Source: Balanoglossus misakiensis
Taxonomy: Eukaryota; Animalia; Hemichordata
Reading direction: 5' to 3'
DNA length: 64,000 nucleotides
Assembly (NCBI GenBank): GCA_040954595.2
Contig: CM082577.2
Span: 15,011,903 to 15,075,902 of the forward strand
Shown: positions 1 through 63,943 of the stretch, one piece after another
How positions within the stretch are numbered: position 1 is the stretch's first letter
Layout: the number at the start of each line of letters is the position of its first letter
The notes under the pieces: generated by a model
What the model saw: the letters and a program-made list of their open reading frames with translations, nothing else
Told to the model about the DNA's origin: nothing
Databases searched by the model: none
Made by a program: the position numbers and the translations under genes

Positions 1-557
1 AAAGCTTGGATTGGTTGAACCAGTGAACGGATCGCGTCCAATGATCAACGACGTAAACCCGTCGCTCGCCAGATTTCCATTTCCGCCATCTTGTCGGTCC
101 AAAGTACTCCAATGGATACCATTCACATAAACTATGACATTCACGGTGTCCCACGTGAAGGTTATATGCCGCCAGTCGTAGGCACTGGGCGCTTTGGCGC
201 GAAACGACCATTCCCCGTCGTCTGCCGACAAAAGTGTGAATTCAACAAAAACGCCGTCATACTCGAACCGGAAACCTCTTGACGTGGACGGGTTATCGTA
301 ATTAGATATGATCACACAATCAGTCTTTGAATGTCGCTGGAACCAAAACGACAGTGTAAAGCCCGTCGGACAGCGTAGGGTGCTTCCGATACAAGCCGTG
401 TTGTCGAAGTCTGCGGAGAGCCACGCCCCAGTTGCATCCAGAAGTGCCCCTTGCGATTTGCGAGCTGCAGCCAGCTGAACATATCCATGCATCTCCATTG
501 CAGCGTCACCAACCATGTAGCCGCCAGAAGTCTCATCCATTGGCAAATGGAGACGTT
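1..557 (-). CDS. Internal exon encoding a LamG/pentraxin (ConA-like) domain, resembling the N-terminus of ADGRD1/GPR133-type adhesion GPCRs; runs off the window
   Basis: Acceptor ttttcatttcag at 558-569 (minus), phase 1. Stop-free frame (E)RLHLPMDETSGG...ACIGSTLRCPTGFTLSFWFQ...DWRHITFTWDTVNVIVYVNG...SLIIGRDP carries LamG-like motifs (C-x5-C..GFTLSFW, W.H..FTW, VYVNG, L.IG). Missed by the ORF track because it is open-ended. Confidence 0.85.
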
Positions 558-2917: not shown

Positions 2918-2947
2918 ATTGGACTCTCGTCCAATCAGAATGGCGGA
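2918..2947 (+). promoter_or_regulatory. Candidate promoter of the + strand exon array (inverted CCAAT pair plus YY1-like AATGGCGG)
   Basis: ATTGGACtctcGTCCAATcagAATGGCGG in a CpG-rich stretch ~450 bp upstream of the first recognisable exon. Confidence 0.3.
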
Positions 2948-3402
2948 TGGTAGCATGAGCCAATATTTCGAGTATATGGCTGTAGTGTGTATTACAATAG
3001 GCCTATCTTAGATAGGTCGGAATGGAGAGGTCATTCCTTTTATTTTAGGACGCATCAGCTGCTTGTCTTTTCTATTATATTGGACAAATTCGGATTGTTT
3101 TATCACTTCAAAAATTGAAGACGCCGAACTATAGTTTCCCTGTGCCTATTTGGATTTGCCCTACGCTTCTGTAGTCTAATGCAATAACAAGATAACCGTA
3201 CTTACAAAATCACGCTTCCAAAAAAAACACCGTGAGAGAATTCATCACCTGCATTTCAGTTTGTCTGCATTCATTGACCTGAGACTCTTTCTCTCTGCAT
3301 GCACACAGACGTTGCACTGCATTCTTTGACTAATTAGTGTGACGTAATGCTAAAAGCAAGATTCTGATTGGGTAGTAACTGATATGCATATTTCACTCAC
3401 AG

Positions 3403-3516
3403 ATGGTGCCTCGTTCTCGTACCGGAACCGTTGCTTGTATTTGAAATCATTTGGACTTCGACGGTCTTCAAGCATGGAGGTCCCGGTCGCCTCCATGCTT
3501 GAATGTCGGATGTCTG
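3403..3516 (+). ncRNA. Exon H (114 nt) of putative spliced structured ncRNA; contains a hairpin
   Basis: cactcacag acceptor, G|GTAAGCA donor; perfect 14-bp inverted repeat 3467-3480 / 3490-3503. Confidence 0.65.
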
Positions 3517-4184
3517 GTAAGCATGACATTTAATTTAACTTAACTTAACTAGTACACTCTATCTAGCAAGAAGGGTAGTGGTACGGCGAGAATATCCTCC
3601 CACCATGAAAATTCTGAATGTGGAAGGCGTCACAGCAAAATGTACGTCGTTTGCGGTCTCAGTCGGCTTTGCTGTGGCGGTGGTATCGTAACACACTACG
3701 TACGGTATACGTTTTGAGGCGGGCGATTTTAAGGGAAAGCGTTAGTGAAGAAACTGACCAATTGCGACTATTTGATAGTGGATTTTATCGCATTTATCAT
3801 AATTTTTTTGCTGTTTGGAGATTTTTTGGCATCATTATAACTGTTATGAGCTACCAGTGTTAGCTAAGTCCCGATGTTGGCAGCGGCACAAAGAGAATTA
3901 GTTCGAACCATAGACGGCTCTCCCTCCGAGTTTTATGTTTGTTTGTTGTTATTGATTGGCATAATGAACAAAAAAAAATGTTTGCTTGTTTAATTATTTT
4001 TAAATATGGTCACGTTTGTTGGCATGTTAGGTATATTCAACTGTTAGGGTTGGGATTTATTCGCATCACTCCCTGTGTTCGAACTAATTGCATATCCTTC
4101 ATATTTTGACTAATTAGTGGAATGATAATTGATATGCTGAATTTGTTTTATGGTTACTAACTTCTATGCATTTTTAATTCACAG

Positions 4185-4246
4185 AATGATCCATTACAAC
4201 TCGGGATTCTCTTCCTCGTCCGGGGCAAGTTTAAGACCGCTCAATG
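4185..4246 (+). ncRNA. Exon A1 (62 nt, pyrimidine-rich arm) of putative spliced structured ncRNA
   Basis: TACTAAC branch point, aattcacag acceptor, G|GTAAGCA donor; complementary to exon B1. Confidence 0.7.
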
Positions 4247-5524
4247 GTAAGCATATTTGTTTTTATCGGGCATAACGAAATTGTTTGAACATAGGAAGCA
4301 ATGTATGCCTACAAGCTAATTTACATAATCCAGATATCAACTTCTGTTTTTTTCGTTCAAATTCTGTGTGCTCTGACCTCGATTGCCAGTAATATAATCA
4401 CGACGACATGAATTAAATAGACAAGCAAGTTCAAATCTTCACATGAAGCATAAATTCAAATTGGATGTTCATGTATTTCTTTGGCTGAAAGTGTGATTAT
4501 CCAACACCATGCTTAATCATGTTTTGTAAAGGTTAGTTGCATGAAATTAGTGTGATAGCCAGCATTCGATGTGATGGCCAACAGTAGTTCCAAATACGCT
4601 ATTCAGTGTTCACATGTGTAGATAAAATTGTCGATCACTAATACACATTTTGAGAACGTACTTTTAAGGCGAATCTTTAAGTAAAACAAGGACACTTGAA
4701 ACACCTATTTAGTCAAACAAAAAGATATTGATTTTTCTATTGACAGAACAAAGAAAATGTACATGTTAACTTTCAACAGAGACTGGCTACATCAGTTAAT
4801 CATTTGCTAGTTTCCTCCAAAATGTGACATTTGCAGTACATGAATACTTTGATTTCTATGGCTTTTAAATTTTAATTTTGAAATTTTCACTCTTATTCCT
4901 CAACATACTTTTCCGGATAAAAATAAATAAATTTGTATGTACTTCATATTTTTGTTAGTATGCAAAACAAAAAAAAGTTATTAAAATGTCAACCTACAAT
5001 GATACAAATCATGGAGAATTGTTGGTAAAATATTGTACTGTGTGTTGTTTAGAGTAAAATAAAACAATACTTTCAGGCCAGAAAGAAAAAAATCATGGCA
5101 TAAACAGGCTGCAGTTTTTGCAGAAATTTCTCTGTTTATGTCAAGGTTAGTACATGTACAGTACATGTGCATCATTTGATAGCCAGCATTCGATGTGATG
5201 GCCAACAGTTAGTTGCAAAAACCTATTCAGTGTCTGTCCAATAACGGGTGCAGCAGATTGAATGAAAATTGCATTGAAAAGATGTAGACTGATGTCAAAG
5301 TGGTTGCATTGATATTAAAGTTTGATCTGAATAGGCAGTTATATTGCAGTGAGTTCAATATGAAGTTTGTTGTGTTCAATGTAGCCTTGCTCCAAGTCTG
5401 TAGGCTTCATTATTTAAAAAAAATACATTTCAGAAAATTGTGTACTGAGTCTCTCTATGGAGCTTGTGGGGAGGATAGCGTTGGCTCATGGTAACCAAAG
5501 CCAGAAGTCCATTCCAAAAGTCCA

Positions 5525-5643
5525 TTCCAAATTCGAAACTCAGCTCAGTACCAGAAACTCGCTCAAAGCTAGCAAAATACACGAAAAGTATTAAGAATCT
5601 TTACAAAGACAAAAATCACCAAGCGACTGGTGGGCTAGTCTAT
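5525..5643 (-). mobile_element. Truncated terminal fragment of the TAGACT-ended element family found intact at 24433-25659
   Basis: Reverse complement TAGACTAGCCCACCAGTCGCTTGGTGATTTTT...GAGTTTCGAATTTG aligns to 24433 onward. Confidence 0.75.
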
Positions 5644-6156
5644 GTTCAATGTGTCTTCCCCGGTAACATCACAACCCTTCGAAATGTTTTGGTATACTGA
5701 TATTCAAAGTTGAAATGTTAAGGCTTGTTTTACTAAGATACATGTTTAATAATTCATATCAATGTCCATTGTTGTGCTAATCAGTTGTATGAGGTCAGTT
5801 GGATCAGATGCAAGTTTCATTTTCAAAATAGCTATAAAGTAATCCTTGTACAGTATTATCTTGATGTCACAGATATAGTGTCAGTTTCACTGGTCACCTG
5901 ATTGCCATGTTGGGGTATACCCATGTGGAGCATTTTTACTGCAGTACCGATGTAAATGCAGTTTCAAAATCGCTGTTTCAAAGAACGCTGAGACAGAATT
6001 CTACGATTAGTATTCTACTGTTGTGCATTATCACTGCACAGTCAGACCCTACAGTCATTATACCACATCCTGCATATTTTCACTAAGTGGTTTTGCATAA
6101 TTCTAAAGCAAGGTTATGATTGGTTACTAATTAATATGCATATATTTAATTCACAG

Positions 6157-6228
6157 TCTTAAACGCAGCATTTCAACGTATGCCGGAGGAGGGAGAGAAT
6201 ACCCTGGCCCGATCAAGACCGCTTTCCG
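6157..6228 (+). ncRNA. Exon B1 (72 nt, purine-rich arm) of putative spliced structured ncRNA
   Basis: TTACTAAT branch point, aattcacag acceptor, G|GTAAGCA donor; complementary to exon A1. Confidence 0.7.
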
Positions 6229-7392
6229 GTAAGCACAACTTGCTGTATACATGCTTCATAGCTTGTTTATAAATGCTACCTTTTCCCATCAAATAGTGAA
6301 TTCACCCTGTCTAAATTATGGGGGCGTCAATCCACAATTGGTTATCATGAACAGTTGATTACACCAATAATCTTTTGAATATTCTCCACTTGTATAACCT
6401 TTAGGTAGCACTATCCTCAACAATATCAGTTAATAAGATTCAAATTTCATATTGAAGATGTTGTATAGCAAAGCTGATCAATTATGACTATTTGATGTGG
6501 AATTTATCAAAGAATGTGTCACAAATCAACAACTGAAGAATAAACAGTCACCTAACATGTATCAAATTTTTTGTTAGAGGGAACCAGAGCAGAGTCTCAT
6601 AAACCTGCCCACTCAAGCTAACCATAACTTGACAAATGTTTCCGTCATAGCATGCAGAAAATTGTGTAGGCATGACTTGGGATGTAAATTTGATGAAAAT
6701 AGCTAGATGCATATTGTTCACAAACAGCTGACTGTACTGATAGACTAGTAGTTGTGTACTTCATTTACATATTCAATACTTGTAGTCTTACCATGTCTAC
6801 ATCTGGGGGATTTCTTGACCAAAATGTCCCTGCAGGTACAATGTCATGTAATCATGTAGTATGGTAGTACAAAAAATGTAATTGTCAGTCTGTTTATGGC
6901 ATTTTTAAATATTTGATTTTGTCTATGATTTTGATTAGGTTTTTGGTTTCAAAATCATTTTCTATACTTTTGACATTTTTGGGTGAAATGATTTTGCTTG
7001 ATAAATCTGATTTGCCTGAAATTCGGTTTACAGTATTTACACCATCTATAAATTATGAAGTATCAGAATTGCATCAGGCCCCAAGATTCTAGTCACCATT
7101 AGCAAGTGTATTTTTGGCCATTGACCTGGGTAAGCTACAAATAAAAATGCGTTGTCAAGGGTATAATGGTTTTTTGCACGAGCTGCATGTTTATAATTTG
7201 CAATAGAAATAGACACTGTTGCAAAATTTGCATTTTTATAATTTGCCATTTTTGGTCTTAAATTTTTTTCCCCCAAAAAAACTCATGTCAGATTACTTTG
7301 AAATTTGGTAGACATGTTTCTAGGGGTAAACAAAGTTCGATGTAAAACGTTTGGTGAAATTTGTATGCTTGTGAAATTTTTGCCTAAAATTG

Positions 7393-7920
7393 TTAGGGGC
7401 CAAAGAGTTTTTCTTCTTCACGGGCGCTTTTTTTTATAAAGCTAGAACTAGAAAACAGCTCCATGTATGCATCTCAAACTTGGCACAATGATGGGAGCCC
7501 ACGAGTTCTTGTGCATAGCACTCTTGCAGTCTAATTAGTCATGAGAATGTGACCAGCGGCCATATTGGATTTCCTGAAAGACGTGAAATCTCAGATCTCA
7601 GGAACTACTGGCCAGAACGTCTCCAAATTAAAAATCTTCTTCTCCAGAACCAGCAATCACCAAGTTGTGGGATTATGTGTATGTGTTTAGCTAAGTGAGA
7701 TCTACAAAAATACTGTACAGAATTATGATTGGTTTCAGCTGAAACTTTGCATGAAACATCAGGGGCAAGACTAATTTGAAGTCTATTGACAAAATTTTGA
7801 AAAGTCAACAAATGGCCGCAATGTTAGATTGTTGTTCAGCTCATTATTTCCATATCTATTTTTAGTCTAAATACTGATAGCACTGAAATTCTTTTTATGG
7901 ATATGGGTCATATGCCTAAA
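7393..7920 (+). mobile_element. Degenerate interspersed repeat (HINE/DINE-1-like), paralogous to 17266-17790
   Basis: Shared blocks with 17266-17790, e.g. aattagtc..gtgacc..gccatatt, cttctccagaa and tttttagtctaa...tgatagcac. Confidence 0.5.
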
Positions 7921-9755
7921 AGTTGTTGCAATTTTTTGGCAATTTTCTGATGACCTATGACCTAGTTTTTGAGAAACTTATTATATTTGCATATGTCTAA
8001 TACTAGCCGTTGTAAAACCACCAGTGTCACACGACTAAAATCACAGACAGGTTTTCTTTCAAATATTTCTGCAATTTTGGCAATGCTTTTTGACCTATGT
8101 TTGCTGCTTGTTGTCGTTTTTCTGCATATCTAATTATATGCTAACAAAAGGGGCTAGACGTTTGGTTTTAGATGCATGTGGAACATATGGGACTTAAATT
8201 TGATGATTAATTTCTGGACCCCCTTGATCTCTCTTGACCTCATTAAATATATACATATCTAATTTTAAGCTTGCTAGGAGAGTTGAAAGTGCAGTTTTTT
8301 TGTTGACACGCATTACTGTGGTACTAAAATGTGATGGTTAATTTATGACCCCCTTGACCAATGTTGACTTATTAAATATGTACATACACAATATCTCAGC
8401 ATCCGCACCAGATACAGCCTGGACATGTCGAGGGCTGAAACTTTAAAGGGTACACAAGCTGCAACTTTTGGGATGATTATCATATATACTTTCTTTTGTC
8501 AAACTGTACTACCATTTAGCCCATAAAGATGTATGTACTGCTGTATACAAGTGTTATTTGTGTATAGTCTGCAGTTTTTATTCAAATATGTGACTCATGA
8601 TGAAATGCCGTGCATTTGCTGACCAACAAAATATAAACATTGCATGTAGTCAGCGTTGTAATTGAGCATTATTTTGAATTCAAGTCCAGACAGCGGCCAT
8701 TATACACATACCCTGGTACAGACTATGGTAACAAGTGAAACACTTAGTATATCTGCATGGTGTTTGGAATAGAGCAAAACATAGCATTTGATACACAAAA
8801 CAAAAATGCTGGAAAAGCCATATGTTACAACTAATGTCCTTTTCTGTAAAACATGTATCCAAAACACTCAATTTGTTCATTGAATACATGTTCAATTTTC
8901 AAAATGTGCAAATTTGTGCAAAATGTGCAAATTTGTGCTATTTGTTTGAAAAGGGAAAATTCAAATTGAGATTATATCAAATGTTTCCTTCCATTAAGTA
9001 AAATTGAAAATTCTTCTGCTAATAATTATCCCCCTTTGTACCACACCCACTTTCTATATACAGGCCCTCCATCTATAGGTCAGTTGGTATTTGGAAACTG
9101 TGCTTGCTTCTCCGTACAGACCACAGGCCATTGTTGTCAAAGTTGGTCACAGTTGATATATCAAATTAATATCTTAACAGACAACAATGCTAAAATACAA
9201 TGAATTAAAAGGAAACTTATAAATAATTAATAGCTGCGCATATTCAACCTATAATACCAGATAATAATTGCGATCACAACCACTAATTATTCAATGGTCA
9301 AATACCCAGTGTTTACATGACAAAGTGGAAATTTAATAACAGAAAAATGACTCCTCAAATCCTGAGATCACAGATCAGTCATCAACTAATAATATGAACT
9401 TCTGGTGAGAGTATTATAGGAATTGTTGAAAATAACAGAGAGAGTAAAAGAAAGTTTTGTAGATGCATGGTGGCACTGAAACAAAAAATCCTTCACATCC
9501 ACAAGGACATATCACATGTCACATTAATAAACTTATTTTCATAGCCACCCCTGAAAGACTGGTGTTTTTGTGCCCTCCCTCAACATTTCTCATGTAAAAA
9601 AAAAAATTAGCCTGAGGCCCTCCCCCCCCAAATTTCTCATGTAAAAATTCGATGCCCCCCTAAAAATGCTCAACACTCCTTTTCACCTTCACCTGCATTT
9701 TGTGACATACATGTTTATGATTGCTTACTAACTACTATTCATAATTGATACACAG

Positions 9756-9839
9756 ATGGAAGCCACGATTGTCGGAATTTCAACTGGTTCGGGTTTCTCG
9801 TTCTCCTGCGCGCCGAAGTCTGTTTAAGACTACTTTCTG
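9756..9839 (+). ncRNA. Exon A2 (84 nt, pyrimidine-rich arm) of putative spliced structured ncRNA
   Basis: TACTAAC branch point, cacag acceptor, G|GTAAGCA donor; downstream intron is paralogous to that of A1; complementary to exon B2. Confidence 0.7.
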
Positions 9840-10462
9840 GTAAGCATGACTTCATTTATATTTCCTCTTATGGGGCATTATAGCAAAACCATAAAAAACA
9901 AAATGAAAATGCTCTCAGCCTACAAATAGATTTACATATTCCAGCTTTCTTTCCTTCAAATTCTGCATGCTCTCTCCTTGATTTCCTGTAATATGATCAT
10001 GATTACGTGAATAAAATGGACATAAATTCAATTTGGACTCATTTAGATTATGGCAGACTACCCTGGTAGCTATAATTGTATTTAGGCGCCTTGGATAACA
10101 TTACTTGTTTGCTGGGTGGGTGTAGGTTTCTTGAGAAAGTGTTGTGATAAAGTGTGCGAACACATTTCTGTTGTTTACATATACGGTACAGATAATGATG
10201 TCAGTTTCATTTGTCACCTGATTGCCATGTTAGCGTGTACCCATGTGAAGATTGTTTGCTGCACTACTACTGTGTTAATGGAGTTACAAAATTGCTGTTT
10301 CACAGATTTCCCTGATTATTATTCCCTTCTAGTGCATTATCACAACACAGCTTGACCCTACAATTATACCATGTTCTGTTCTGCATATTTTGAATGACAT
10401 AATGCTAAAAGTTAATTTCTGATTGGTTACTTATTAATATATATATATATATTGATTCACAG

Positions 10463-10650
10463 CTGGTGTCTTAAATGTCATCATTAGGCTGTGGAGGAGG
10501 GGGAGAAGACTTGGACCCTATGTTGAAGACCCTTGCGGCATGATTTGCTGTATACAGCGTGTATACATGCTGTATACATGCTGTATACATGCTGTCAACA
10601 TTTGCTGAAGGAAGGGGAGAAGTCCCAGGCCCCATTAAATACTTTTTCTG
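10463..10650 (+). ncRNA. Exon B2 (188 nt, two tandem purine-rich arms) of putative spliced structured ncRNA
   Basis: attcacag acceptor, G|GTAAGCA donor at 10650/10651; flanks ~10190-10815 are paralogous to ~5870-6410 around B1. Confidence 0.6.
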
Positions 10651-10865
10651 GTAAGCATGACTTGTTGTATACATGCCAAATAGCTAGTTTATGCTATCTT
10701 TTCCCATCAAATGGTTAATTCACCCTCTCAAAATTATTGGGGCAGCAATCCACCACTGGTTATCATGGCCACCACTAATAATCACTTGAATATTCTTCAC
10801 TTGGTAACCTTAATGTAGTGCCACCGTCCACGATTGATTATCACTAGTTGAATAGGGGATCTAAT

Positions 10866-11176
10866 TAAGCAATAAAACACCCGCAGCCATGGTATACCAC
10901 GAGATTTTGACCAGTTCACGACATATACGCATGAGCGATAGCGAGTGCGTATATGTCGTGAAGTTGAACTGGTCAAAATCGAGTGGTATACCATGGCTGG
11001 GGGTGTTTTATTGCTATTATATTATGCCAGTATATTGAAACTTTGCATAAAACATTTTAATAAGGCATTTTCTTTGACTTTGATATATGACTGTGGTATA
11101 TGACGAATATATCACGTGTCGTGTCTCGACCAATAAAATAGCGTGATTTACACCATCAATATACTGGTATAATATA
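10866..11176. mobile_element. Foldback non-autonomous element (Crypton-like palindromic repeat)
   Basis: ~150-bp near-perfect palindrome AGCAATAAAACACCC...GGGTGTTTTATTGCT (10866-11016), followed by a second IR pair ttatgccagtatattg / caatatactggtataa. Family assignment is by resemblance only. Confidence 0.65.
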
Positions 11177-17892: not shown

Positions 17893-18113
17893 GTAACATG
17901 AATCTGGGAGTCTTTAGCATAAAACATTGATTCTAATCCATGTCTTGTAATGATATCCTCAAGGGGTGTTGTTTATAAACTGAAGAGGGCAGGTGCAAGA
18001 ACAGAGCCTTGGGGAACACCACAAATACACACATGAGCTCTTGACACCACTGACTCAACACATACTCTCATTGTTCTACTCAAATACGAACTAATCCATT
18101 TAGACACAGTACC
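17893..18113 (-). mobile_element. Degenerate non-LTR retrotransposon (L2/CR1-group) reverse transcriptase fragment
   Basis: Translates as GTVSKWISSYLSRTMRVCVESVVSRAHVCICGVPQGSVLAPALFSL*TTPLEDIITRHGLESMFYAKDSQIHV: GVPQGS motif, a decayed YADD motif and an in-frame stop. Confidence 0.9.
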
Positions 18114-18465
18114 TAATAGAACTAGAATTCTGGACTTTGTTGGACATGGATCAGTTTGGGATCAAAGTGTATCGACAAAATGTTCAGTGACCACACAGTC
18201 ACTTTTGGCCTGCTTTCCTATATCTTTTTATCCACATCAGATACAGCCTTGGTATTCCCTAGTAACCATGGGAACTGCTTGGGCCCTGCCAATGCTGTTT
18301 GCAGCTTTAATTTTTAAACAATCTCTTCTTATCAAGCTTTTCTTTATCAATGATGGTGAATTGTTGATCTAATCAATTTATTAAAATATTTTTATTCTTT
18401 TTTTTTACATTAGGTTCATTGGTAACACTGCCTCCTGAGGAAGTGTGAAATTTGTGATGATGCCA

Positions 18466-18908
18466 GAATCTAATACTGTAACGGATGGATGAACTTAAAC
18501 TTGTAACGACGCCAGATGCTAATACTGTAATGGATGGATGAACTTAATACTTGTAACGACGCCGGCACCTAATACTGTAATGGATGGATGAATTTAAACT
18601 TGTAACGACGCCGACACCTAATACTGTACTGGATGGATGAATTTAAACTTGTAACGACGCCAGATCCTTATACTGTAACGGATGGTGAACTTAAACTTGT
18701 AACGACGCCGGCACCTAATACTGTAATGGATGGATGAACTTAAACTTGTAACGACGCCAGCTCCTAATACTGTAATGGATTGTTGAACTTAAACTTGTAA
18801 CGACGCCAGCTCCTTATACTGTAACGGATGGTGAACTTAAACTTGTAACGACGCCAGCTCCTAATACTGTACTGGATGGATGAACTTAAATTTGTAACGA
18901 CGCCAGAT
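18466..18908 (+). repeat. Minisatellite, ~9 x 48-50 bp
   Basis: Unit TAATACTGTAA(T/C)GGATGGATGAACTTAAACTTGTAACGACGCC(A/G)G...; partial copy at ~19035-19075. Confidence 0.95.
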
Positions 18909-19330
18909 GATGCTACTGGAACCAAAGGGATGACTGACATCGCCATGATTTGCTGTTCCGATCAATTTATTAATAGTCATTTTTTTTCTCAGTAGGTAAA
19001 ACCATCGCTGGAGGAGGCTGGAGTATAATTAATATTTGTAACGACGCCAGATGATAAAACCGTAATGATGGGATGAATTAGAAGACTGGAGGTGAAGCTA
19101 ATATGGCCAATAAAATGCTGTGCACAAGGGTACTGTAATAATTAAAACTACAAGGGTATAATATAATTGTGTCAATGCTGGGATAGTAAATAAATACTTT
19201 AAAATATGGGTAAAGCCACGTGGTTAATTAAAAACTGTACATGTACAGAGGGTAATTACCGGTATAATATGACATGGAGTAAAAGTTAATGGTGTAAAAA
19301 TAGTGTAACACAAGGTACTGGTGGTAATCT

Positions 19331-19557: not shown

Positions 19558-22500
19558 TTAAGTACAATAATTATTAAAAAAATTTCCATGTATCCGTGTG
19601 ATTTTCTTGTTTGTATTTCAGCGGAATCAGCTCGTCGTGCAATGGAATTTTGTTACGCGCCCGTGTGATTTGCCGGTGGAATTTTCGCAATGTTATCCGT
19701 GATTTCATTCGTCATCGCTATTTGCTCATCAACACAAATCAGCTATCTCGTGCATCCGCGATCGTGTACTTCGCTAGTGGAATTTTCGCAACGTTATCCG
19801 TGATTTCATTCATCATCGCTATTCACTCGTCAACATGTATCTCGTGCAACAACACTACATCAGCGGTAAAAATACAAAAAATGGCAAGACAATCGGGTTA
19901 GTTTGAGCCCCTACTTTTAGCATTTGCAACAGACAATGGGGGAGAGGGCAGTGTTTCCTCATTTTATGTTTGGCTCGAGGTTTTTTCACGGTCCCTCAGG
20001 CGCGTAAAGGAAGTTAGATTATCACACAGAATGTAATTATCTTGCTTGATATCAAAAAAGGAAAAATATGGGGGAGCTTCTTACGATTTGTACCCAAGAG
20101 GCTTATGGTTTTTTACCCATAGGTAATATAAGCACATAATAATAGCCTAAAAAACTAACATTTAACTAAAGGGTAAAATCCTAAAGTTTTTGTGTGCAAC
20201 ATCAATAGAAGCTATTTTGGCACATTATTTTGGTTTGAAAGACAGATGCTATTTCTGCTCAATGTTTCTGTTTGTCTACTTGGACATATTGTTTCAAATT
20301 TGTATATGACATTTTGTTTCAAATTGGGTATATGACACCTTGATTCAAATTGGTATGCAAGATATTTTACATCAGCATTAGCCACCTAGCCACACTTAAG
20401 GTACACAGTATAGGAAAAATAATGAAATTTTGCAACCAAAAAAACAGAGGTATTCTTGGGGTGTCTTTGACATGGCGGTTCGACTCCGTCGGTACCTAAG
20501 CTTGGAAAGCAAAAACTTCATTGTTTTTCATATGTACTAAATTATAATATTCCAAATTCATATTTTTGTTTTCGTACAGTTTGTTCAATACAGAAAAAAA
20601 TGCTTTGTTTCAGTTAGGGGGCCAAAGCTTTCCCACCTTGTCTTGCCAACTTTTCACACTTCTTCAAGATGCGTCATCAGCATTAGGCAGTATTTGATCA
20701 AATTGGTCAATACAATGTAAAATTAGACTTATACAGAGAGAGAGAGAAAAACAAATCTTTATGTTTATATTCAGTATGATGTTTCCGTTGCTTTACCTCG
20801 CAAATGATAGCCTTGAGGATTTTGCTTTTCACCAGCAATGCTGTACCAACCAGGGAGAGAAAATTAACTTATGTTTTGCATGATTCAAAGCCAGAACTTC
20901 TGCACCAATTCATGCAGCAAGTCCATAGTAAGGAAGTTCAGCAATTCATGTAGCAAGTCTGAAAACGAAGTACACTGTTAGGATATTTTACCTTTTTCTG
21001 CATTTACCAGTGACCGTTATAAAAGACAAATAAAGAGATGTATTGAGTGTTCATTAAAAGTTTTCCATTATACAGTCCAATATGGACTGGTTAAACATTG
21101 ACGCAAGGTTCGACCATATAGAACTCTCAAATATGGTTTGTGTTGAGTGTTAATTAAAAGTTAGTACTGTCCACTATGGACTGGTTAAACATTGACGCAA
21201 GGGTTGACCTTATAGAACTGTCAAATATGGTTTGTGTTGCCAGTTAATAAAAAGATGGGTACAGTACACTGTGACCTGGTTAAACATTGACACAACTGTT
21301 GCCCATATAGCATTTATGGACTTGAGTGCTCATTCAAAGTTTTGTATAATACTGTCCACTATGGACTGGTTAAACATTGACGCAAGGGGTTACCGTATAG
21401 AACTCTCAAATATGGGTTGTGTTAAGTGTTAATACAAAGATGGGTACTGTACACTGTGACCTGGTTAAACATTGACACAAAAGTTGCCCATATAACATGT
21501 ATGGTGCATTGAGTGTTCATGCAAAGTTTTGAATCTACTGTCCACTATGGACTGGTTAAACATTGATTGATGCAAGGGTTGACCTTATAGAACTCTCAAA
21601 TATGGTTGTGTTGAGTGTTAATAAAAATATGGGTACTGTACACTGTGACCTGGTTAAACATTGACACAACAGTTGCCCATATAGCATTTATGGACTTGAG
21701 TGCTCATTCAAAGTTTTGTATAATACTGTCCACTATGGACTGGTTAAACATTGACGCAAGGGGTTACCGTATAGAACTCTCAAATATGGGTTGTGTTAAG
21801 TGTTAATACAAAGATGGGTACTGTACACTGTGACCTGGTTAAACATTGACACAAAAGTTGCCCATATAGCATATATGGTGTACTGAGTGTTCATGCAAAG
21901 TTTTGCATAATAATGCCACTATGGAATGGTTAAACATTGATGCAAGGGTTGACCTTATAGAACTCTCAAATATGGTTTGTGTTGAGTGTTAATAAAAAGT
22001 ACATAATGACCTGGTTAAACATTGACACAACAGTTACCCATATAGCATGTACAGTGCATTGAGTGTTCATGCAAAGTTTTGAATCTACTGTCCACTATGG
22101 ACTGGTTAAACATTGATTGATGCAAGGGTTGACCTTATAGAACTCTCAAATATGGGTTGTGTTGAGTGTTAATAAAAAGTTAAGTACTGTACACTATGAC
22201 CTGGTTAAACATTGATACAACAGTTGCCCATAGAGCATGTATGGTGTATTGAGTGCTCATTCAAAGTTTTGCATAATACAGTCCACTATGGACTGGTTAA
22301 ACATTGACGCAAGGGGTGACCGTATAGAACTCTCAAATATGGGTTGTGTTAAGTGTTAATAAAAAGATGGGTACTGTACACTGTGACCTGGTTAAACATT
22401 GACACAAAAGTTGCCCATATAGCATGTACAGTGTATTGAGTGTTCATGCTAAGTTTTGCATAATACTGTTCACTATGGACGGTTAAACATTAATGACGCA

Positions 22501-24432
22501 AGGGTTGACATTATAGAACTCTCAAATATGGGTTTTTGTTGAGTGTTAATAAAAAGATGGGCACTGTACACTGTGACCTGGTTAAACATTGACACAACAG
22601 TTGCCCATATAGCATGTATGGTGTATTGAGTGCTCATTCAAAGTTTTGTATAATACTGTCCACTATGGACTGGTTAAACATTGACGCAAGGGGTGACCGT
22701 ATAGAACTCTCAAATATGGGTTGTGTTAAGTGTTAATAAAAACATGGGTACTGTACACTGTGACCTGGTTAAACATTGACACAAAAGTTGCCCATATAGC
22801 ATGTATGGTGTATTGAGTGTTCATGCAAAGTTTTGCATAATGCTGTCCACTATGGACTGGTTAAACATTGATTGATGCAAGGGTTGACCTTATAGAACTC
22901 TCAAATATGGGTTGTGTTGAGTGTTAATAAAAAGTTAAGTACTGTACACTATGACCTGGTTAAACATTGACACAACAGTTACCCATATAGCATGTACAGT
23001 GTATTGAGTGTTCATGCAAAGTTTTGCATAATGCTGTCCACTATGGACTGATTAAACATTAATGACGCAAGGGTTGACCTTATAGAACTCTCAAATATGG
23101 TTTGTGTTGAGTGTTAATAAAAAGTACATAATAACCTGGTTAAACATTGACACAACAGTTACCCATATAGCATGTACAGTGTATTGAGTGTTCATGCAAA
23201 GTTTTGCATAATACTGTCCACTATGGACTGATTAAACATAAATGACGCAAGGGTTGACCTTATAGAACTCTCAAATATGGGTTGTGTTGAGTGTTAATAA
23301 AAAGATAGGTACTGTACACTGTGACCTGGTTAAACATTGACACAACAGTTGCCCATATAGCATGTATGGTGTATTGAGTGCTCATTCAAAGTTTTGTATA
23401 ATACTGTCCACTATGGACTGGTTAAAAATTGACGCAAGGGGTGACCGTATAGAACTCTCAAATATGGGTTGTGTTGAGTGTTAATAAAAATATGGGTACT
23501 GTACACTGTGACCTGGTTAAACATTGACACAACAGTTGCCCATATAGCATTTATGGACTTGAGTGCTCATTCAAAGTTTTGTATAAAACTGTCCACTATG
23601 GACTGGTTAAACATTGACGCAAGGGTTGACCTTATAGAACTCTAAAATATGGGTTGTGTTGAGTGTTAATAAAAAGATGGGTACTGTACACTGTGACCTG
23701 GTAAAACATTGACACAAAAGTTGCCCATATAGCATGTATGGTGTAATGAGTGTTCATGCAAAGTTTTGCATAATACTGCCACTATGGACTGATTAAACAT
23801 TAATGACGCAAGGGTTGACCTTATAGAACTCTCAAATATGGGTTGTGTTGAGTGTTAATAAAAAGATGGGTACTGTACACTGTGACCTGGTTAAACATTG
23901 ACACAACAGTTGCCCATGGAGCATGTATGGTGTATTGAGTGCTCATTCGAAGTTTTGTATAATACTGTCCACTATGGACTGGTTAAACATTGACGCAAGG
24001 GTTGACCTTATAGAACTCTCAAATATGAGTTTTTGTTGAGTGTTAATAAAAAGTACATAAATGACCTGGGTAAACATTGACACAACAGTTACCCATATAG
24101 CATGTACAGTGTATTGAGTGTTCATGCAAAGTTTTGCATAATACTGTCCACTATGGACTGGTTAAACATTGACGCAAGGGGTGACCGTATAGAACTCTCA
24201 AATATGGGTTGTGTTGAGTGTTAATAAAAAGATGGGTACTGTACACTGTGACCTGGTTAAACATTGACACAACAGTTGCCCATATAGCATGTATGGTGTA
24301 TTGAGTGCTCATTCAAAGTTTTGCATAATACTGTCCACTATGGACTGGTTAAACATTGACGCAAGGGGTGACCGTATAGAACTCTCAAATATGGGTTGTG
24401 TTGAGTGTTAATAAAAAGATTGGTACTGTACA

Positions 24433-25659
24433 TAGACTAGCCCACTAGTCGCTTGGTGATTTTTAAATCTCAATACTTTTTGTGTTTTCGGTGGTTTTTT
24501 GTCTTAATAAATAATTTCAATACTTTTTGCGAGCATGCTTGCCTTTAGCGTGTTTTTGGTAGTGAGGAGAGTTTCGAATTTGCGACTGAGCTTGTGGTTT
24601 CGGGTAGCGTCGACCAAGCGACTAGTACACCTTGCAAAATCTACAAACGCTCAGGCCGTTTGTTGACATAGTCGAGAATGATTGACAGGGGCGTGGATCC
24701 CGTGCACCAATGAGAATAGAGAGATGTGATATAACGTGAACGCGTAGAACCCACGTTCGTGTAGCTGTTCAGGTACAATGCATGAGACACGGTATGATAC
24801 GATCCGCGGTCACGAGTGACCGTGCACGATCACCCAGCTGAGAACGTAATTCGCCGTGAAAAATACAACCAAACACTTCGAAGTTGACCAAATAAATGAC
24901 ATCGATCGACGCCTATAGTCCACCGACATTTAATGAGCGACTTTGGTACCTGAAAAGTCGTAGTCAAGTACGGCGCGACCTGTGAGTGTGATGTCAACGT
25001 CTGTTTGTGTGGCACGCGCACTCTGTTATTTGAGCGTATACATCGTACACCGTGTCGCTGCACTGCAACTATAGTTTCAGCCATCGGGCGACCATAAAAA
25101 TTATAACACACCATGCAGCGAACCCTCGATCGTGATTCGTCAATACGACGTCACGTGACCTTAGTCATTTCGAACTGTTGCCTAGGGCATCAGTTCGATC
25201 GGTTTGGTATGTTATAAAACACATGATGACTGACATATTCGGGCAACACTGTATTTTTAATGACCTCGGGACTGCCAGTCACACCAAAACAGTCTGTTTT
25301 CCCTCGGGCTATGCCCTCGGGAAAACAAGACTGTTTTAGTTGTGACTAGCAGCACCCTCGGTCATCAAAATACACTGTTGCCCTCATTGTCAGTCATCAT
25401 GTGTATATTGATGACCGAATTTCACATAAAATGAGTAAAAAGAAATGTACCCGTTTGCGTTTTCGCTATGAGATACCCAAATATGATTTTCGGGTACTCG
25501 AGGTAATGCGTTGAAACTCCGCCCACTATTTAAATTAACTAATGAATATTCATAAATGACGTCAACATGAATAATTCATAGCAACCGGAAAGCAGCAAGG
25601 TGAACAAGTCTATGGGCCGACACGTTCCCTACACATCCCATAGACTTGGAGCAAGTCTA
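24433..25659. mobile_element. Non-autonomous DNA transposon with TAGACT...AGTCTA ends and 9-bp TSD (AcademH-like; hAT19/MuDR not excluded)
   Basis: TSD TACTGTACA at 24424-24432 and 25660-25668, verified against the empty satellite unit; short TIR TAGACT(A/T)GC; subterminal 12-bp stem 25605-25648. Confidence 0.8.
25214..25408. mobile_element. Nested ~195-bp palindromic MITE
   Basis: ACACATGATGACTGACA...TGTCAGTCATCATGTGT arms; pairing continues inward (aaaacagtctgttttccc / gggaaaacaagactgtttt). Confidence 0.85.
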
Positions 25660-27060
25660 TACTGTACACTGTGACCTGGTTAAACATTGACACAACAGTT
25701 GCCCATATAGCATGTATGGTGTACTGAGTGTTCATGCAAAGTTTTGCATAATACTGTCCACTATGGACTGATTAAATATTAATGACGCAAGGGTTGACCT
25801 TATAGAACTCTCAAATATGGTTTGTGTTGAGTGTTAATAAAACGATGGGTACTGTACACTGTGACCTGGTTAAACATTGACACAACAGTTGCCCATATAG
25901 CATGTATGGTGTATTGAGTGCTCATTCAAAGTTTTGCATAATACTGTCCACTATGGACTGGTTAAAAATTGACGCAAGGGTGACCGTATAGAACTCTCAA
26001 ATATGGGTTGTGTTAAGTGTTAATAAAAGGATGGGTACTGTACAATGTGACCTGGTTAAACATTGACAAAACAGTTGCCCATATAGCATGTATGGTGTAT
26101 TGAGTGTTCATGCAAAGTTTTGCATAATGCTGTCCACTATGGACTGGTTAAACATTGACGCAAGGGGTGACCGTATAGAACTCTCAAATATGGGTTGTGT
26201 TGAGTGTTAATAAAAAGATGGGTACTGTACACTGTGACCTGGTTAAACATTGACACAACAGTTGCCCATATAACATGTATGGTGTATTGAGTGTTCATGC
26301 AAAGTTTTGCATAATGCTGTCCACTATGGACTGGTTAAACATTGACGCAAGGGGTGACCGTATAGAACTCTCAAATATGGGTTGTGTTGAGTGTTAATAA
26401 AAAGATGGGTACTGTACACTGTGACCTGGTTAAACATTGACACAATAGTTGCCCATATAGCATGTATGGACTTGAGTGCTCATTCAAAGTTTTGCATAAT
26501 ACTGTCCACTATGGACTGGTTAAAAATTGACGCAAGGGTGACCGTATAGAACTCTCAAATATGGGTTGTGTTAAGTGTTAATAAAAGGATGGGTACTGTA
26601 CAATGTGACCTGGTTAAACATTGACAAAACAGTTGCCCATATAGCATGTATGGTGTATTGAGTGTTCATGCAAAGTTTTGCATAATGCTGTCCACTATGG
26701 ACTGGTTAAACATTGACGCAAGGGGTGACCGTATAGAACTCTCAAATATGGGTTGTGTTGAGTGTTAATAAAAAGATGGGTACTGTACACTGTGACCTGG
26801 TTAAACATTGACACAACAGTTGCCCATATAACATGTATGGTGTATTGAGTGTTCATGCAAAGTTTTGCATAATGCTGTCCACTATGGACTGGTTAAACAT
26901 TGACGCAAGGGGTGACCGTATAGAACTCTCAAATATGGGTTGTGTTGAGTGTTAATAAAAAGATGGGTACTGTACACTGTGACCTGGTTAAACATTGACA
27001 CAATAGTTGCCCATATAGCATGTATGGACTTGAGTGCTCATTCAAAGTTTTGCATAATAC

Positions 27061-28493
27061 CCCTTACGAAAAAATAAGGCTTCTGGCGAACAGTTGTGGT
27101 AAACTTATATACCATATACCGCAACTGTTTGCGGCGCATGCGCGGCTAATGCATATTTTCGCATGCAAATGAGCTGTTGCGGCGCACAGTTGTGGTAAAC
27201 ATACCGCAACTTTGTGGCACATATGCGGCACGTATGCCAAAACAGGGGTTTGTGGCGTACATGCCGCAAATTCTGCCCTTTGCAACTTTGCGGCGCATAT
27301 ACCGCAACTGTTTGCGGCGCACGCGCGGCTAATGCATATTTTCGCATGCAAATGAGCTGTTGCGGCGAACAGTTGCGGTAAACATACCGCAACTTTGTGG
27401 GTTTGCGGCGTATATGCCGCAAATTATGACCTCTTGTTAATACATGTAATTAATCCCTACTGTGGCCCCTTCTTAGCTACCAGCCACCCGTGAAAAGAAT
27501 TGCCAATCTATCCATTCTGTTCTGAAGTTTGCATACTTCACAGTAAAATGTACATGTATCTTGGTTCAGCAAATCTTAATTCTCATGTGAATTTGGTGTG
27601 TCATATTCATACATGTACTTCCCATAAGGAGAGTTATCCGAAGTATATTCAACAGGCTTAGACAAAACATCCTTTCTTTGTTAAATTGTGACCCTCATTG
27701 TTTATTTCAACAGCAGGCATTTTATAGTTATCTCAAGTGATTCAACTACCACAGAAACCAACATAATTTAGAAAACTCACCCAGCTGTATACATGTCATT
27801 GCAATGTTCTTGTCTCAAGTGTCCTCTTACTGGTATAAATTGTCTTGGATCAACACCAGAGTTTTTCTTTTGCAGACACTTTTCCATTTAGTCTGACTTT
27901 TAGTACAAGATTATGACATCATCCTCAGGAAATTGTTCAAACTACTGACCTCTGGTAATGCACAAATATCGCTACCACAGTATTCAAGTGAAGCAGCTTC
28001 CAGCTGTATGGATTGGTGACATCAAATTCATGGTTTTTGATGGGCACAGTGACTACAGTGTAACCTTACACAATCAAAATGTCCGCCTAAATGAAACCAG
28101 CCTCATTCTCGTTTCTGCACATGTCACCAAAAAGTAATTATAACCAGCTGCATATTCAAATTCTGTTTACTTGAACGTTCTGGCATATATACCGCAACCG
28201 TGCCGCAACAGACTCCACTGATCACCAGATAATATCAAACTCCCTGTTTACTTTACTTTTGCGGCATATGCGCCGCAAAAGGCTCCACTGATCACCAGTA
28301 GTACAAGACACTCTGTGTTTACTTAAATGTTGCGGCATACGTGCCGCAAAAGTCTTGACTGATCGCCAGAAGTGTGCCGGTACTGGCGATCATCGGCGAT
28401 TAGTCGCCACAAAGTTGCGGTCAGAAATTTGCGTGCCGCACATGTGCCGCAACTTCGCCGCATGTTTGCCGCAAGAAAACAACTTCGTAAGGG
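27061..28493. mobile_element. Non-autonomous CMC/EnSpm-type transposon inserted in the satellite
   Basis: TIR CCCTTACGAA/TTCGTAAGGG; 2-bp TSD AC verified against the empty unit; dense subterminal GCCGCA/TGCGGC repeats. Confidence 0.85.
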
Positions 28494-30620
28494 ACTGTCC
28501 ACTATGGACTGGTTAAACATTGAGGCAAGGGGTGACCGTATAGAACTCTCAAATATGGGTTGTGTTGAGTGTTAATAAAAAGATGGGTACTGTACACTGT
28601 GACCTGGTTAAACATTGACACAACAGTTGCCCATATAGCATGTATGGTGTATTGAGTGCTCATTCAAAGTTTTGCATAATACTGTCCACTATGGACTGGT
28701 TAAACATTGACGCAAGGGGTGACCGTATAGAACTCTCAAATATGGGTTGTGTTGAGTGTTAATAAAAGGATGGGTACTGTACACTGTGACCAGGTTAAAC
28801 ATTGACAAAACAGTTGCCCATATAGCATGTATGGTGTATTGAGTGTTCATGCAAAGTTTTGCATAATGCTGTCCACTATGGACTGGTTAAACATTGACGC
28901 AAGGCGTGACCGTATATAACTCTCAAATATGGGTTGTGTTGAGTGTTAATAAAAAGATGGGTACTGTACACTGTGACCTGGTTAAACATTGACACAATAG
29001 TTGCCTATATAGCATGTATGGACTTGAGTGCTCATTCAAAGTTTTGCATAATACTGTCCACTATGGACTGGTTAAACATTGACGCAAGGGGTGACCGTAT
29101 AGAACTCTCAAATATGGGTTGCGTTGAGTGTTAATAAAAAGATGGGTACTGTACACTGTGACCTGGTTAAACATTGACACAACAGTTGCCCATATAGCAT
29201 GTATGGTGTATTGAGTGCTCATTCAAAGTTTTGCATAATACTGTCCACTATGGACTGGTTAAACATTGACGCAAGGGGTGACTGTATAGAACTCTCAAAT
29301 ATGGGTTGTGTTGAGTGTTACTAAAAAGATGGGTACTGTACACTGTGACCTGGTTAAACATTGACACAACAGTTGCCCATATAGCATGTATGGTGTATTG
29401 AGTGCTCATACAAAGTTTTGCATAATACTGTTCACTATGGACTGGTTAATTATTGACGCAAGGGGGGACCGTATAGAACTCTCAAATATGGGTTGTGTTG
29501 AGTGTTACTTAAAAGATGGGTACTTTACACTGTGACCTGTTTAAACATTGTCACAACAGTTGCCCATATAGCATGTATGGTATATTGAGTGTTCATGCAA
29601 AGTTGTACATGTACAGTCCACTATGGACTGGTTAAACATTGACGCAGGGGTTTACCTTATAAAACAGTTGAAAAAATGTAGGGTCCCTTATTGTGATAAT
29701 TCGCCCGCCATAATGCCAAAGTAAGCAAATTAGTCAACTTTAATCTGTCTCAGACAATTTGAGTTCACTGTTTGTGTAAGGAATTTTGTTGTTGACGACT
29801 TCAATGTTGTATTCACGTTGTTATGTACTTTACATAGTACGGGGTACAACAGAATTAATGTTCTGTGCACCAGAGAACTCGTGTTTAAATTGCAAGAGTT
29901 AATATATCAAAAATGTATCACCCTATACAAAATGATAGCATGTGATAAACAAGGGATGTTAAAAACATTGCAATCTGCCAAGCATTGCACCATTTTCACT
30001 ACATGTAATTGAGACAAACAGCAAACCGATTACAGAGTTTGTTCTATTTTACGATAATTTTGAAGTCATTGATCTAGTTCAGACATTTGTACTAATCCTA
30101 AGCACGACTCAATCGAATTTTTCGTAAACCTTCACTGAAAATACATCCAATGCCTCAAAATGCCAGCACAGAGGGCGCCCCAGTAGGAGATTACCAGTTT
30201 TTATAATAGAAAAATTGCCAAAAAGGACAATTTTTTTCTATTCCGCAATTCCATGTACGTCACCTTCGATTGTTGGTAAGAATGTTATGCCTTCCTGAAA
30301 AATAGACAAACTACACTACCTGAAACTTGTTATTAGTCGAACAGTTTCCTCCGTGCCTCGAAATTCCATAGATAATGGATGAAAGATTGAAATCTATCCG
30401 TTAGAATTATGCAAATTCTTAGATGCGCCCATTGTAAAAGCAGATAACGGGAGTATACAGAGGGCAGTGTGAAGTGTGTGTCACTGAGATAGGCCAAATG
30501 TTGTAAATTGCGTTACTATAGTATCATACTATGTTTACAAAACAATTTCAATTTCCTTCCGAGAACCGACCCGAAAATGTTCATGTATACCATTAAACGA
30601 AGCTTGTACATTTTTTGGAC

Positions 30621-30738
30621 ATTTCTTACCATTCTTAGTATAAAAACAGCTTGCCTTTAAGTGTAACAGCTTGCCTCATAGTATAAAAACAGCTTGCCTT
30701 TAAGGCAAACTGTTTTTATACTAAGAATGGAAAGAAAT
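30621..30738. repeat. Palindromic element with an internal partial duplication
   Basis: ~37-bp arms ATTTCTTACCATTCTTAGTATAAAAACAGCTTGCCTT / AAGGCAAACTGTTTTTATACTAAGAATGGAAAGAAAT. Confidence 0.8.
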
Positions 30739-33700: not shown

Positions 33701-34516
33701 CAACCTTTACTACCGCTAGTGCCGGTCGTAATGACAACACGTGTGTTTACTGTAACCCATGGCGACATGTGATCACGTGATAAAATGACGCGAAATTGAT
33801 GTTGAAATTTAGAGACAGTTTCATTCTAATGATTCAACCCATGGGCGTACGAAGGTAGACTATTTATTTGGCCACCGCATTACATTGTTCACCAATACAT
33901 TCTACAGCCTTTAATTTGTCCTTTTAACCCAGATTACAATTCAGGGTTAAGGTAAATAACACTATTTTGTTTCACTGTAGCGTTCTAAGGAAATCAAAAT
34001 GAGAATATCGATAGTTGGGACAAAACAAAGTATCCGACCACAGTCTGCACATCGGTGAGGAGAATTCAGATCTCAAAGAAACAAGATAAAGGGATTAGGG
34101 AAAACTTACTCCTTTAGAAAATATGTCATGTCGAGTTTTGAAATTAGCTTTGCTTTTGGCAGGTCACTCCCCTCCGCGGGTTTTCTGATATGTTAATTAA
34201 TAACGAATTCGGCGTTCATATAACACTCCTACCTGCAATTTCTTTACAGATTGTTCTTTTAATGTTATGGTAATATGTGGTACAATCTGTGATAAAAGTA
34301 AACTACCACATATTTCATTATAGTGTCCTTTAATTTAGAAACTTCCAAACGTACGCGTGTTCCAGGAATCTCAGGGTCCAATATTGGACTGTACATGAAT
34401 GATCGGGCTCTATATACTATGAGCAGTCCCAACTTTAGCTGGGCGTCTGCTGAATATCTATTTAAATGCACCTGCGCATTTTTCGGAATGCCACACATGG
34501 CTTTGAAACGGACATA

Positions 34517-34717
34517 CTGTAAAACGGGTTATTTTCGCGAACAATTCTTTTGGCGAAATACGCGAGAGTAAAAAAACGTGAAAATAAAAAGTCGCGTTAT
34601 TTTTGTCCAGAGACACCGATGCAGAGAAATACGAGAATGCGAAAATTAATCCTCGTGTAACAGTTGCCTATTTTGATCTCGTGAAAATTTCTTGTCGCGA
34701 AAATAACCCGTTTTACA
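34517..34717. mobile_element. Tc1/mariner/pogo-type MITE
   Basis: TA-flanked; ~23-bp TIR TGTAAAACGGGTTATTTTCGCGA. Confidence 0.8.
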
Positions 34718-61133: not shown

Positions 61134-61708
61134 CTGTTAAAAGAGAGATTATATCAAATTTAATGATGCGCCAATAAGAACAGGCTCGGGAAAATAAATG
61201 TTAAATTACTGAACGTGAAATTACTGCAGACAAATTAAAGGTATACAGTCACCTCCAATTTACATACGCCCATATATGGCTGAAATTGCGTATTTGTGCA
61301 TTCTAAAGAACATATGGCGGCGCTCTTTTATGGCGTGTGCCACCCACTGAAACTCTGCAATTGGCTAGATCTCAATTTGCCATGGTAACTACAGATAATT
61401 TTCCATAGGTGATGTTGTTGAATGACTTGCAACATTGTAGCCAGCAATAAAGTTCTCTTTGCTAGTTTATTACAAGATTTGGACCACAGTACATTGTACT
61501 GAGGCGTGAAAGTGCCCTTAGACCCAGACCAATAAACTATTTCGTGTGGCTATTTATGAAACATCGAATGATACATTAAAGCCCCATGAGATTGTGCAAG
61601 TGGTTTTTATTCAGTAATTCTATGTCATCGGCCCAACATACTTCATATTATATATAAATACAAAATACATGTACATACATGTATTCGGATATTTTTAGGA
61701 ATATCTAC

Positions 61709-63457: not shown

Positions 63458-63491
63458 TCCAGAATATATATGGTTTATGGGAGCCAAACAA

Positions 63492-63906: not shown

Positions 63907-63943
63907 CTGTAAAACACAAGTACGTGAACGGTTTCAGACATTT

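Follow-up and report, generated by a model that had tools for sequence, protein, structure and literature searches.

The plus strand of a 64-kb window from the hemichordate Balanoglossus misakiensis (contig CM082577.2) contains, at positions 3403–10650, five exon-like units that are probably spliced in genomic order into an RNA transcribed from a promoter near 2.9–3.0 kb. We interpret this locus, with confidence that falls a little short of even, as a young, spliced cluster of the primary microRNA (pri-miRNA) or hairpin RNA (hpRNA) kind; transcription and splicing we infer from sequence features, and folding is predicted. The five tandem-duplicated units would be spliced into a noncoding RNA (ncRNA) of at least 520 nucleotides (nt), which is predicted to form consecutive hairpins and is likely cut to small RNAs by RNase III enzymes (Drosha and/or Dicer). 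A more specific proposal is rather doubtful, namely that this is an animal small-RNA gene made of exon modules in which each junction completes a hairpin by supplying either a lower stem and a CNNC motif or a whole 3′ arm. The conservation of the splice cores and a strand bias of G-U pairs argue for a spliced, structured plus-strand RNA. In the folding models, splicing dependence holds for the stem that joins the first two units.

Exon-like units and a putative plus-strand transcript

The units and the candidate promoter upstream of them are as follows.

2918–2965, plus strand: candidate promoter with three CCAAT boxes and a YY1-like ATGGCGG in a CpG-rich zone (putative function)
3403–3516, plus strand: exon-like unit E0, 114 nt, with acceptor CACAG, donor G/GTAAGCA (the slash marks the exon end) and its own 27-bp hairpin at 3452–3516
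4185–4246, plus strand: exon-like unit A1, 62 nt, with a pyrimidine arm at 4203–4223, GTTTAAGAC at 4229–4237 and a branch-like TACTAAC at 4155
6157–6228, plus strand: exon-like unit B1, 72 nt, with GTCTTAAAC at 6156–6164, a purine arm at 6183–6204 and a branch-like TACTAAT at 6125
9756–9839, plus strand: exon-like unit A2, 84 nt, a duplicate of A1 with a branch-like TACTAAC at 9726
10463–10650, plus strand: exon-like unit B2, 188 nt, composed of B2a (10463–10538), a palindrome hairpin (10531–10611) and B3 (10592–10650)

Each unit is a GC-richer block of 62–188 nt that opens after CACAG and closes at GGTAAGCA. The plus strand of the window has five copies of GGTAAGCA, all located at 3516–10650 and each serving as the donor of one unit. 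CACAG and G/GTAAGCA are invariant in all five units, compared with 25 of 83 columns (30%) in the rest of the acceptor flank, 4 of 31 (13%) in the donor flank, and 3 of 25 (12%) at the exon end; this invariance is inflated and tells less in favor of our reading than the figures suggest, because the units were first spotted through their splice motifs and the B2a donor is a decayed sixth. B3 renders this sole decayed donor redundant. Of the five plus-strand TACTAAC/T motifs in the window, three lie 29–31 nt before the acceptors of A1, B1, and A2. B1 and A2 have six and seven CpG dinucleotides, respectively, and such counts were reached by none of the same-size intron windows (0/79 and 0/67), none of which has more than four. 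The ratio of observed to expected CpG (o/e) is approximately 0.9–1.0 at 2–4 kb, where the motifs that we take to be CCAAT boxes and a YY1-like site are found, and 0.2–0.5 from about 5 kb on (0.3–0.4 at 5–10 kb). A search of sequencing runs with positions 3300–10900 listed no matching RNA run, which counts neither for nor against transcription.

Just past the candidate promoter, positions 4600–30000 form a CpG-depleted domain (o/e 0.2–0.5, with CpG-rich interruptions) in which the plus strand is G+T-skewed, and a second CpG-depleted, G+T-skewed domain is present at 40–45 kb. The domain at 4.6–30 kb could be a methylated gene body or reflect repeat methylation; its fit to a plus-strand gene body is weak evidence, confounded by repeats in the same orientation.

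All five units have about 95 nt of upstream (acceptor) flank in common, and a search of the window with profiles made from them revealed no sixth copy. The A2-B2 pair and its intron ends form a segmental duplicate of A1-B1, with 70–84% identity in the flanks and 70–75% in the exons. B2 is also partially duplicated within itself: B2a retains a donor remnant without GTAA, and B3, the last 59 nt of B2, is a second partial B copy that aligns to the end of B1 without gaps and has an intact donor. The likely origin is that one self-complementary exon and its intron ends were tandem-duplicated, with partner arms retained in neighboring copies, and that the A-B pair was then duplicated as a whole. This model remains conjectural because a comparison of the E0 arms, as direct ancestors of A and B, with the A/B arms gave no significant alignment in direct orientation.

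Other changes are recorded in the same region. The hairpin at 10531–10611 in B2 (34 pairs) arose when a palindromic TGTATACA unit of the old donor flank was repeated by tandem slippage. A 57-nt direct repeat with 93% identity (4553–4609 and 5177–5233) is present in the A1-B1 intron and absent from the duplicate intron. A further part of the A1-B1 intron, 5372–5648, is a diverged fragment of the CpG-rich insertion of a satellite array located downstream. About 220 nt past the last donor, an element at 10868 that resembles a miniature inverted-repeat transposable element (MITE) truncates the duplicated intron sequence. A motif scan of metagenome contigs returned two loci, which are attributed to chance because both have 54% GC and lack real resemblance to the window (best E 0.71).

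Hairpins formed across predicted junctions

Once joined, the RNA folds as a series of five hairpins, and each of the four junctions is bridged. The junction-spanning hairpins are listed below.

3446–4190, plus strand: hairpin H1 in the spliced model, with arms 3446–3481 and 3489–3516 plus 4185–4190; 33 pairs and a 7-nt loop
4200–6207, plus strand: hairpin H2 (A1/B1), with a 20-bp lower stem, a 5x18 internal loop, a 9-bp upper stem and an 8-nt loop at the junction
6209–9775, plus strand: hairpin H3 (end of B1/start of A2), with 7 + 6 pairs and a 4-nt loop at the junction; borderline compared with chance
9779–10527, plus strand: hairpin H4 (A2/B2), with 33 pairs and a 36-nt 5′ arm; its 49-nt top includes a 12-bp inner stem, and the junction lies in a 7-nt loop

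The hairpin of E0 went unnoticed in an earlier annotation of this DNA (hereafter the original prediction). Positions 3430–3530 have a z-score of −4.4, and none of 200 shuffles folded as well. At junction 3516^4185, A1 contributes the last six basal pairs of H1 and a CNNC motif at 4197–4200. The arms of spliced H1 are 36 and 34 nt long, whereas the unspliced form has 27–28 contiguous pairs; the folding energy of E0^A1 is −52.3 kcal/mol spliced and −40.8 kcal/mol unspliced. Random segments matched the A1 extension of the E0 stem in 3 of 400 and 5 of 414 cases (about 1%), and the other exon starts in 0 of 3. In the unspliced model, the basal pairs have a probability of 0.0. Only splicing brings a CNNC motif to 7 nt from the stem base, as the intron supplies none, and a UG is located at 3442–3443, just under the 33-bp stem. 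The joining of E0 to A1 would turn a 27–28-bp hairpin into a Microprocessor-sized 33-bp stem with a CNNC motif.

For the A and B units, the original prediction proposed splicing-assembled hairpins, and every sequence string that it quoted was recovered in place. A1 4203–4223 and B1 6183–6204 form 20 pairs with one G-U, one G.G mismatch, and one bulge, and A2 9786–9814 and B2 10487–10517 form 27 pairs; both 9-bp upper stems and the 6-bp stem between B1 and A2 also form when the spliced model is folded. In exon-to-exon duplex energy, none of 300 shuffles was as good for A1/B1 or A2/B2a. With per-exon di- and trinucleotide shuffles, the duplex z-scores are −4.9 and −4.4 for A1/B1 and −4.5 and −5.5 for A2/B2a. 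When the second exon was swapped for GC-matched segments following CAG in the window, equal folding was obtained in 0 of 130 cases for A1/B1 and 0 of 296 for A2/B2. The cognate duplexes (z −4.9 and −4.5) also exceed the cross pairs (z −2.6 and −3.3). The junction stems taken alone are borderline, with random segments performing as well in 5–8% of cases (26 of 500 for the A1^B1 upper stem, 27 of 337 for A2^B2 upper, and 20 of 312 for B1^A2).

The role assigned to splicing in these two hairpins requires revision. The 9-nt partner GTCTTAAAC was thought to exist only after intron removal; it is already present in genomic DNA at 6156–6164, because the B1 acceptor itself ends in G, and its A2/B2 counterpart GTCTTAAAT lies wholly inside B2. 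In a 2.1-kb unspliced A1-intron-B1 model, both stems form with mean pair probabilities of 0.97 and 0.96, and in the unspliced A2-intron-B2 model, the lower stem has 0.87 and the upper stem 0.03, although such long-range equilibrium folding is unreliable. Strict gating of the A/B hairpins by splicing is not borne out, as the lower stems also form in the unspliced models. For the A/B pairs, the models show that splicing shortens the loop (from 1.9 or 0.6 kb to 7–8 nt) and does not create complementarity; because of this shortening, the pairs would become compact substrates. As for the recurrence of the architecture in A2/B2, the pairing is indeed present; its independence does not hold, because A2-B2 is a segmental duplicate of A1-B1.

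Strand bias and exon order

With arms aligned in a strand-neutral manner, the ratio of G-U to A-C on the plus strand is 14:5, 12:1, 11:1, and 14:3 under four scorings (p 0.03–0.002), two G-U pairs that weaken this evidence being common to both duplicates and thus counted twice. Fourteen other inverted repeats in the window give 18:29 (Fisher p 0.001–0.014); these 14 were taken from 25 listed inverted repeats after 11 overlapping sub-arms of an element at 48.5–49.9 kb were dropped. Inversion at the DNA level predicts symmetric G-U and A-C counts. Transcription-linked mutation bias could add slightly to the excess of G-U pairs, but it would itself imply plus-strand transcription. The spliced RNA folds at −225.7 kcal/mol compared with −183.4 kcal/mol for its reverse complement, whereas five other hairpins differ by 10 kcal/mol or less. 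Among the 120 possible exon orders, the genomic order ranks third by folding, and the top four orders are all rotations of the genomic order.

Resemblance to known small-RNA precursors

According to two studies, the rule for mammalian pri-miRNAs is a stem of 33–39 nt, at least 82% paired, with a nearby CNNC (PMC5340965, PMC6004053). Spliced H1 has these stem dimensions, and the lower part of H4 has 33 pairs across 36 nt. CNNC motifs are found at +7 in H1 (spliced only), +12 in H2, and +9 in H4, although motifs this short often arise by chance. On the predicted exons, the two arms of H2 and of H4 are placed in different exons and the intron falls within the loop, as in intron-split miRNAs. H4 might serve as a long-loop precursor for cleavage. 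The duplexes are only 20–33 bp, set against the long inverted repeat of a Drosophila-type hpRNA, and no complementary target for the arms was found elsewhere in the window.

Several observations weigh against the small-RNA cluster. H4 carries a 49-nt structured loop. H2, the main example of the original prediction, has no continuous 33–39-nt stem and a paired fraction of 0.69; judged from its modeled fold, it is not a canonical pri-miRNA and looks degenerate or hpRNA-like. The loop of H1 is 7 nt (9 nt if the closing U-G opens), short of the enriched 8–16 nt, and its CNNC is partly buried in a predicted 5-bp helix; apart from these two features, the models give canonical Microprocessor geometry for the E0/A1 hairpin, and for it only. 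As described above, the lower stems of the A/B pairs form without splicing in equilibrium models. A search of Rfam with the exons unjoined gave nothing above the gathering score and nothing at E up to 1. Neither the first nor the last exon of the transcript was identified; 3231^ is a possible first-exon donor. The CpG content of B2 has not been retained (o/e 0.21), and between the duplicates the exons are no better kept than the introns. Covariation is weak, with two double-sided changes that are still paired in 33 aligned stem columns. Cognate arms are paired in 60 of 66 columns and cross combinations in 57 of 66 (sign-flip p 0.25, or 0.125 for Watson-Crick pairs only), and in simulations of neutral decay from a perfectly paired ancestor, the retention of pairs has p 0.03 with observed change counts and 0.05–0.34 with flank divergence. 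Finally, B3 is a non-adjacent partner and still pairs in 17–20 of 24 columns.

The alignment scores of B3 had suggested that it could serve as a clean control for lost pairing, which the fixed-register count ruled out. The earlier claim that pairing was maintained through divergence is weakly supported, with no more than two double-sided changes, a sign-flip p of 0.25, and p 0.03–0.34 in the neutral simulations. Selection on pairing is not settled by this comparison because two copies are too few.

Alternative explanations

One alternative, which we regard as unlikely, is that the locus is a neutral relic in which a self-complementary unit was tandem-duplicated, with complementarity as a by-product; it may be transcribed and spliced, and its structure would be unselected. 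The acceptor flank shared by all five units, the exons diverging as fast as the introns, a retention of pairs that two of the three flank rates make compatible with neutral decay, the residual pairing of B3, and the abundance of long DNA hairpins in the window are all consistent with such a history. However, it does not account for the plus-strand G-U bias, which is not seen in the other inverted repeats of the window, or for the invariant splice cores, and duplication alone predicts neither the extension of the stem at E0^A1 (about 1% by chance) nor the effect of exon order.

Quite unlikely as well is a structured long noncoding RNA (lncRNA) that produces no small RNAs, acting either in the pre-mRNA as a bridge between A donor and B acceptor or in mature form as a double-stranded RNA scaffold or editing substrate. 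The unspliced upper stem 4229–4237/6156–6164 would favor such a bridge, as donor and acceptor would then be 9 nt apart and the acceptor G covered, and the lack of canonical pri-miRNA shape in H2 and H4 points in the same direction. Nevertheless, the basal stem of E0^A1 cannot guide splicing because it forms only after splicing, the A2/B2 upper stem fails to form in the unspliced model (0.03), and the dimensions of H1 are Microprocessor-like.

That the units are fast-evolving protein-coding mini-exons with incidental pairing appears very unlikely. Spliced A1-B1-A2-B2 does contain an ATG-started frame of 120 codons (p 0.016 compared with 3000 shuffles; p 0.058 from stop to stop), and E0, B1, and A2 each have a length divisible by three and stay open when read in phase 1. 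Against this, the paralogous exons neither keep a frame nor have an excess of synonymous changes: B1 and B3 differ at 5, 6, and 6 sites over codon positions 1, 2, and 3, with 12 of 15 changed codons non-synonymous, the homologous arms A1/A2 and B1/B2a are translated in different frames, and A1 (62 nt) disrupts the frame of E0. The 37-amino-acid peptide of E0 has no match among 1.84 billion proteins, which is a weak test for so short a query, and the G-U bias is left unexplained.

The least probable explanations, with hardly any weight in our assessment, are a snoRNA-host-type gene with disposable exons and functional introns, for which intron ends kept as well as exons and the junction-spanning RNase III stems described in one report on snoRNA hosts (PMC12508059) could be cited, and A/B arms derived from the terminal inverted repeats of an old transposon, which bracket 1.9 and 0.6 kb; the former is opposed by Rfam, which gave no meaningful snoRNA score at 2.7–11.1 kb (best E 0.5, on the minus strand; lineage-specific snoRNAs could escape), by C/D boxes that by eye are not conserved between the duplicated intron ends, and by alignable intron parts that extend over almost the whole 623-nt A2 intron, as expected of neutral duplicates, and the latter by the arms lying inside units that are direct repeats of one another, with no further copy in the window.

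Host gene and genomic setting

Two minus-strand exons define the gene in which the locus is embedded.

1–557, minus strand: host coding exon, laminin-G-like domain (PF13385) of a polycystin-1-like protein; outside the RNA, it sets the antisense-intronic context
30698–30779, minus strand: probable first coding exon of the host, signal-peptide-like with a phase-1 GC donor, suggested by phase and by likeness to the N-terminus of P0001

The frame at 1–557 has 60% identity to residues 28–215 of the Ptychodera flava polycystin-1-like protein P0001, its sole database match. The phase-1 end of the exon at 30698–30779, located at a GC donor, is compatible with the start of the exon at 1–557. Because the host exons lie at 1–557 and 30698–30779 on the minus strand, the five units are probably located antisense within the first intron (about 30 kb) of this gene. 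The earlier proposal of a structured plus-strand ncRNA antisense in an intron of a receptor gene is thus supported by the host assignment, together with the splice cores, the G-U bias, and the CpG content of B1 and A2. The donor of the first coding exon of the host is the non-canonical GC, and at 30621–30779 (minus strand) a local inverted duplication involves the end of this exon (arms of 41 nt, 93% complementary), such that the donor sequence is present more than once.

The Pfam scan covered 139 stop-free frames of at least 55 amino acids (121 of 141 starting below 32 kb and 18 of 164 beyond), with 14 satellite frames and six frames at 31.2–32 kb left out. The only convincing matches are the host domain and a lamin-tail domain (PF00932). 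The latter, with coiled-coil-like frames, belongs to the exons of an intermediate-filament-like gene at 61646–63933 (minus strand). A weak reverse-transcriptase remnant at 17976–18161 (minus strand; E 0.0009) is below the cut-off. The window also contains a 187-bp satellite array at 21000–29650, which is broken by a CpG-rich insertion at about 24.4–25.7 kb, tandem arrays of 49 bp at 18400–19080 and 70 bp at 42514–43188, and MITE-like hairpins or terminal-inverted-repeat elements at 1767–2519, 10868–11015, 34510–34725, 44672–44774, and 48481–49923.

Comparison with known systems and implications

The plant intron-split miRNAs MIR444 and miRtop14 have 5p and 3p arms in separate exons with the intron in the loop, an unspliceable miRtop14 gene yields almost no mature miRNA, and a 2025 paper states that MIR444 and one family in Solanales were the only intron-split miRNAs known (PMC11706861). 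The locus described here resembles these genes in having arms in different predicted exons and the intron in the loop (PMC11706861). However, MIR444 and miRtop14 are plant genes with one hairpin each, for which cloned small RNAs and targets exist, whereas this is an animal locus with predicted hairpins and four serial junctions bridged; unlike those of MIR444, which has a natural antisense origin, its arms overlap no exon of the host gene.

Drosophila hpRNAs are young, fast-evolving, and spliced, with several imperfect hairpins that are often tandem, such as hp-CG4068 in tandem copies and a multi-exonic four-hairpin cluster in D. pseudoobscura, and their processing rests on the insect Dicer-2 (PMC12697358, PMC10317233). 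The present locus is similar to the clustered, spliced members of this class in probably being spliced and in having several imperfect predicted hairpins in tandem copies. In contrast, its duplexes are short (20–33 bp), and the available portions of the hpRNA accounts describe no junction-split arms.

RNase III hairpins that span junctions have been reported in snR107-snoU14 of S. pombe (Pac1) and in human SNHG25 (DROSHA binding) (PMC12508059). In these, as proposed here, splicing across an exon-exon junction completes a hairpin as a conditional RNase III site, so that the principle is already reported in animals. Those cases involve a single short stem at one junction for snoRNA maturation, whereas the stems here are repeated and longer and no snoRNA was found. 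In C. elegans, pri-let-7 is remodeled by splicing (PMC4509930), which provides an animal example of splicing altering the context of a pri-miRNA, as predicted for H1. The pri-let-7 hairpin is contained within one exon, whereas H1 would take its lower stem, and H2 and H4 one whole arm each, from the next exon. The portions consulted of PMC5749182, PMC7016697, and a Hofstenia preprint contain no intron-split animal hairpin. More broadly, the literature searches turned up no animal miRNA whose two arms lie in separate exons; their coverage of subscription journals is thin, and absence is not proven.

Programs for finding animal miRNAs work by folding contiguous stretches of genomic DNA, and precursors with arms in different exons would therefore be missed. 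If small RNAs map to the arms, the locus would show how hairpin clusters that depend on splicing can arise by tandem exon duplication, and with its four junctions this one gene would offer a direct test of the coupling between splicing and Microprocessor. Should the exon-module proposal be true, splicing order and exon skipping would determine which small RNAs are produced, and such precursors, invisible to genome-based miRNA annotation, could represent a hidden class in animals.

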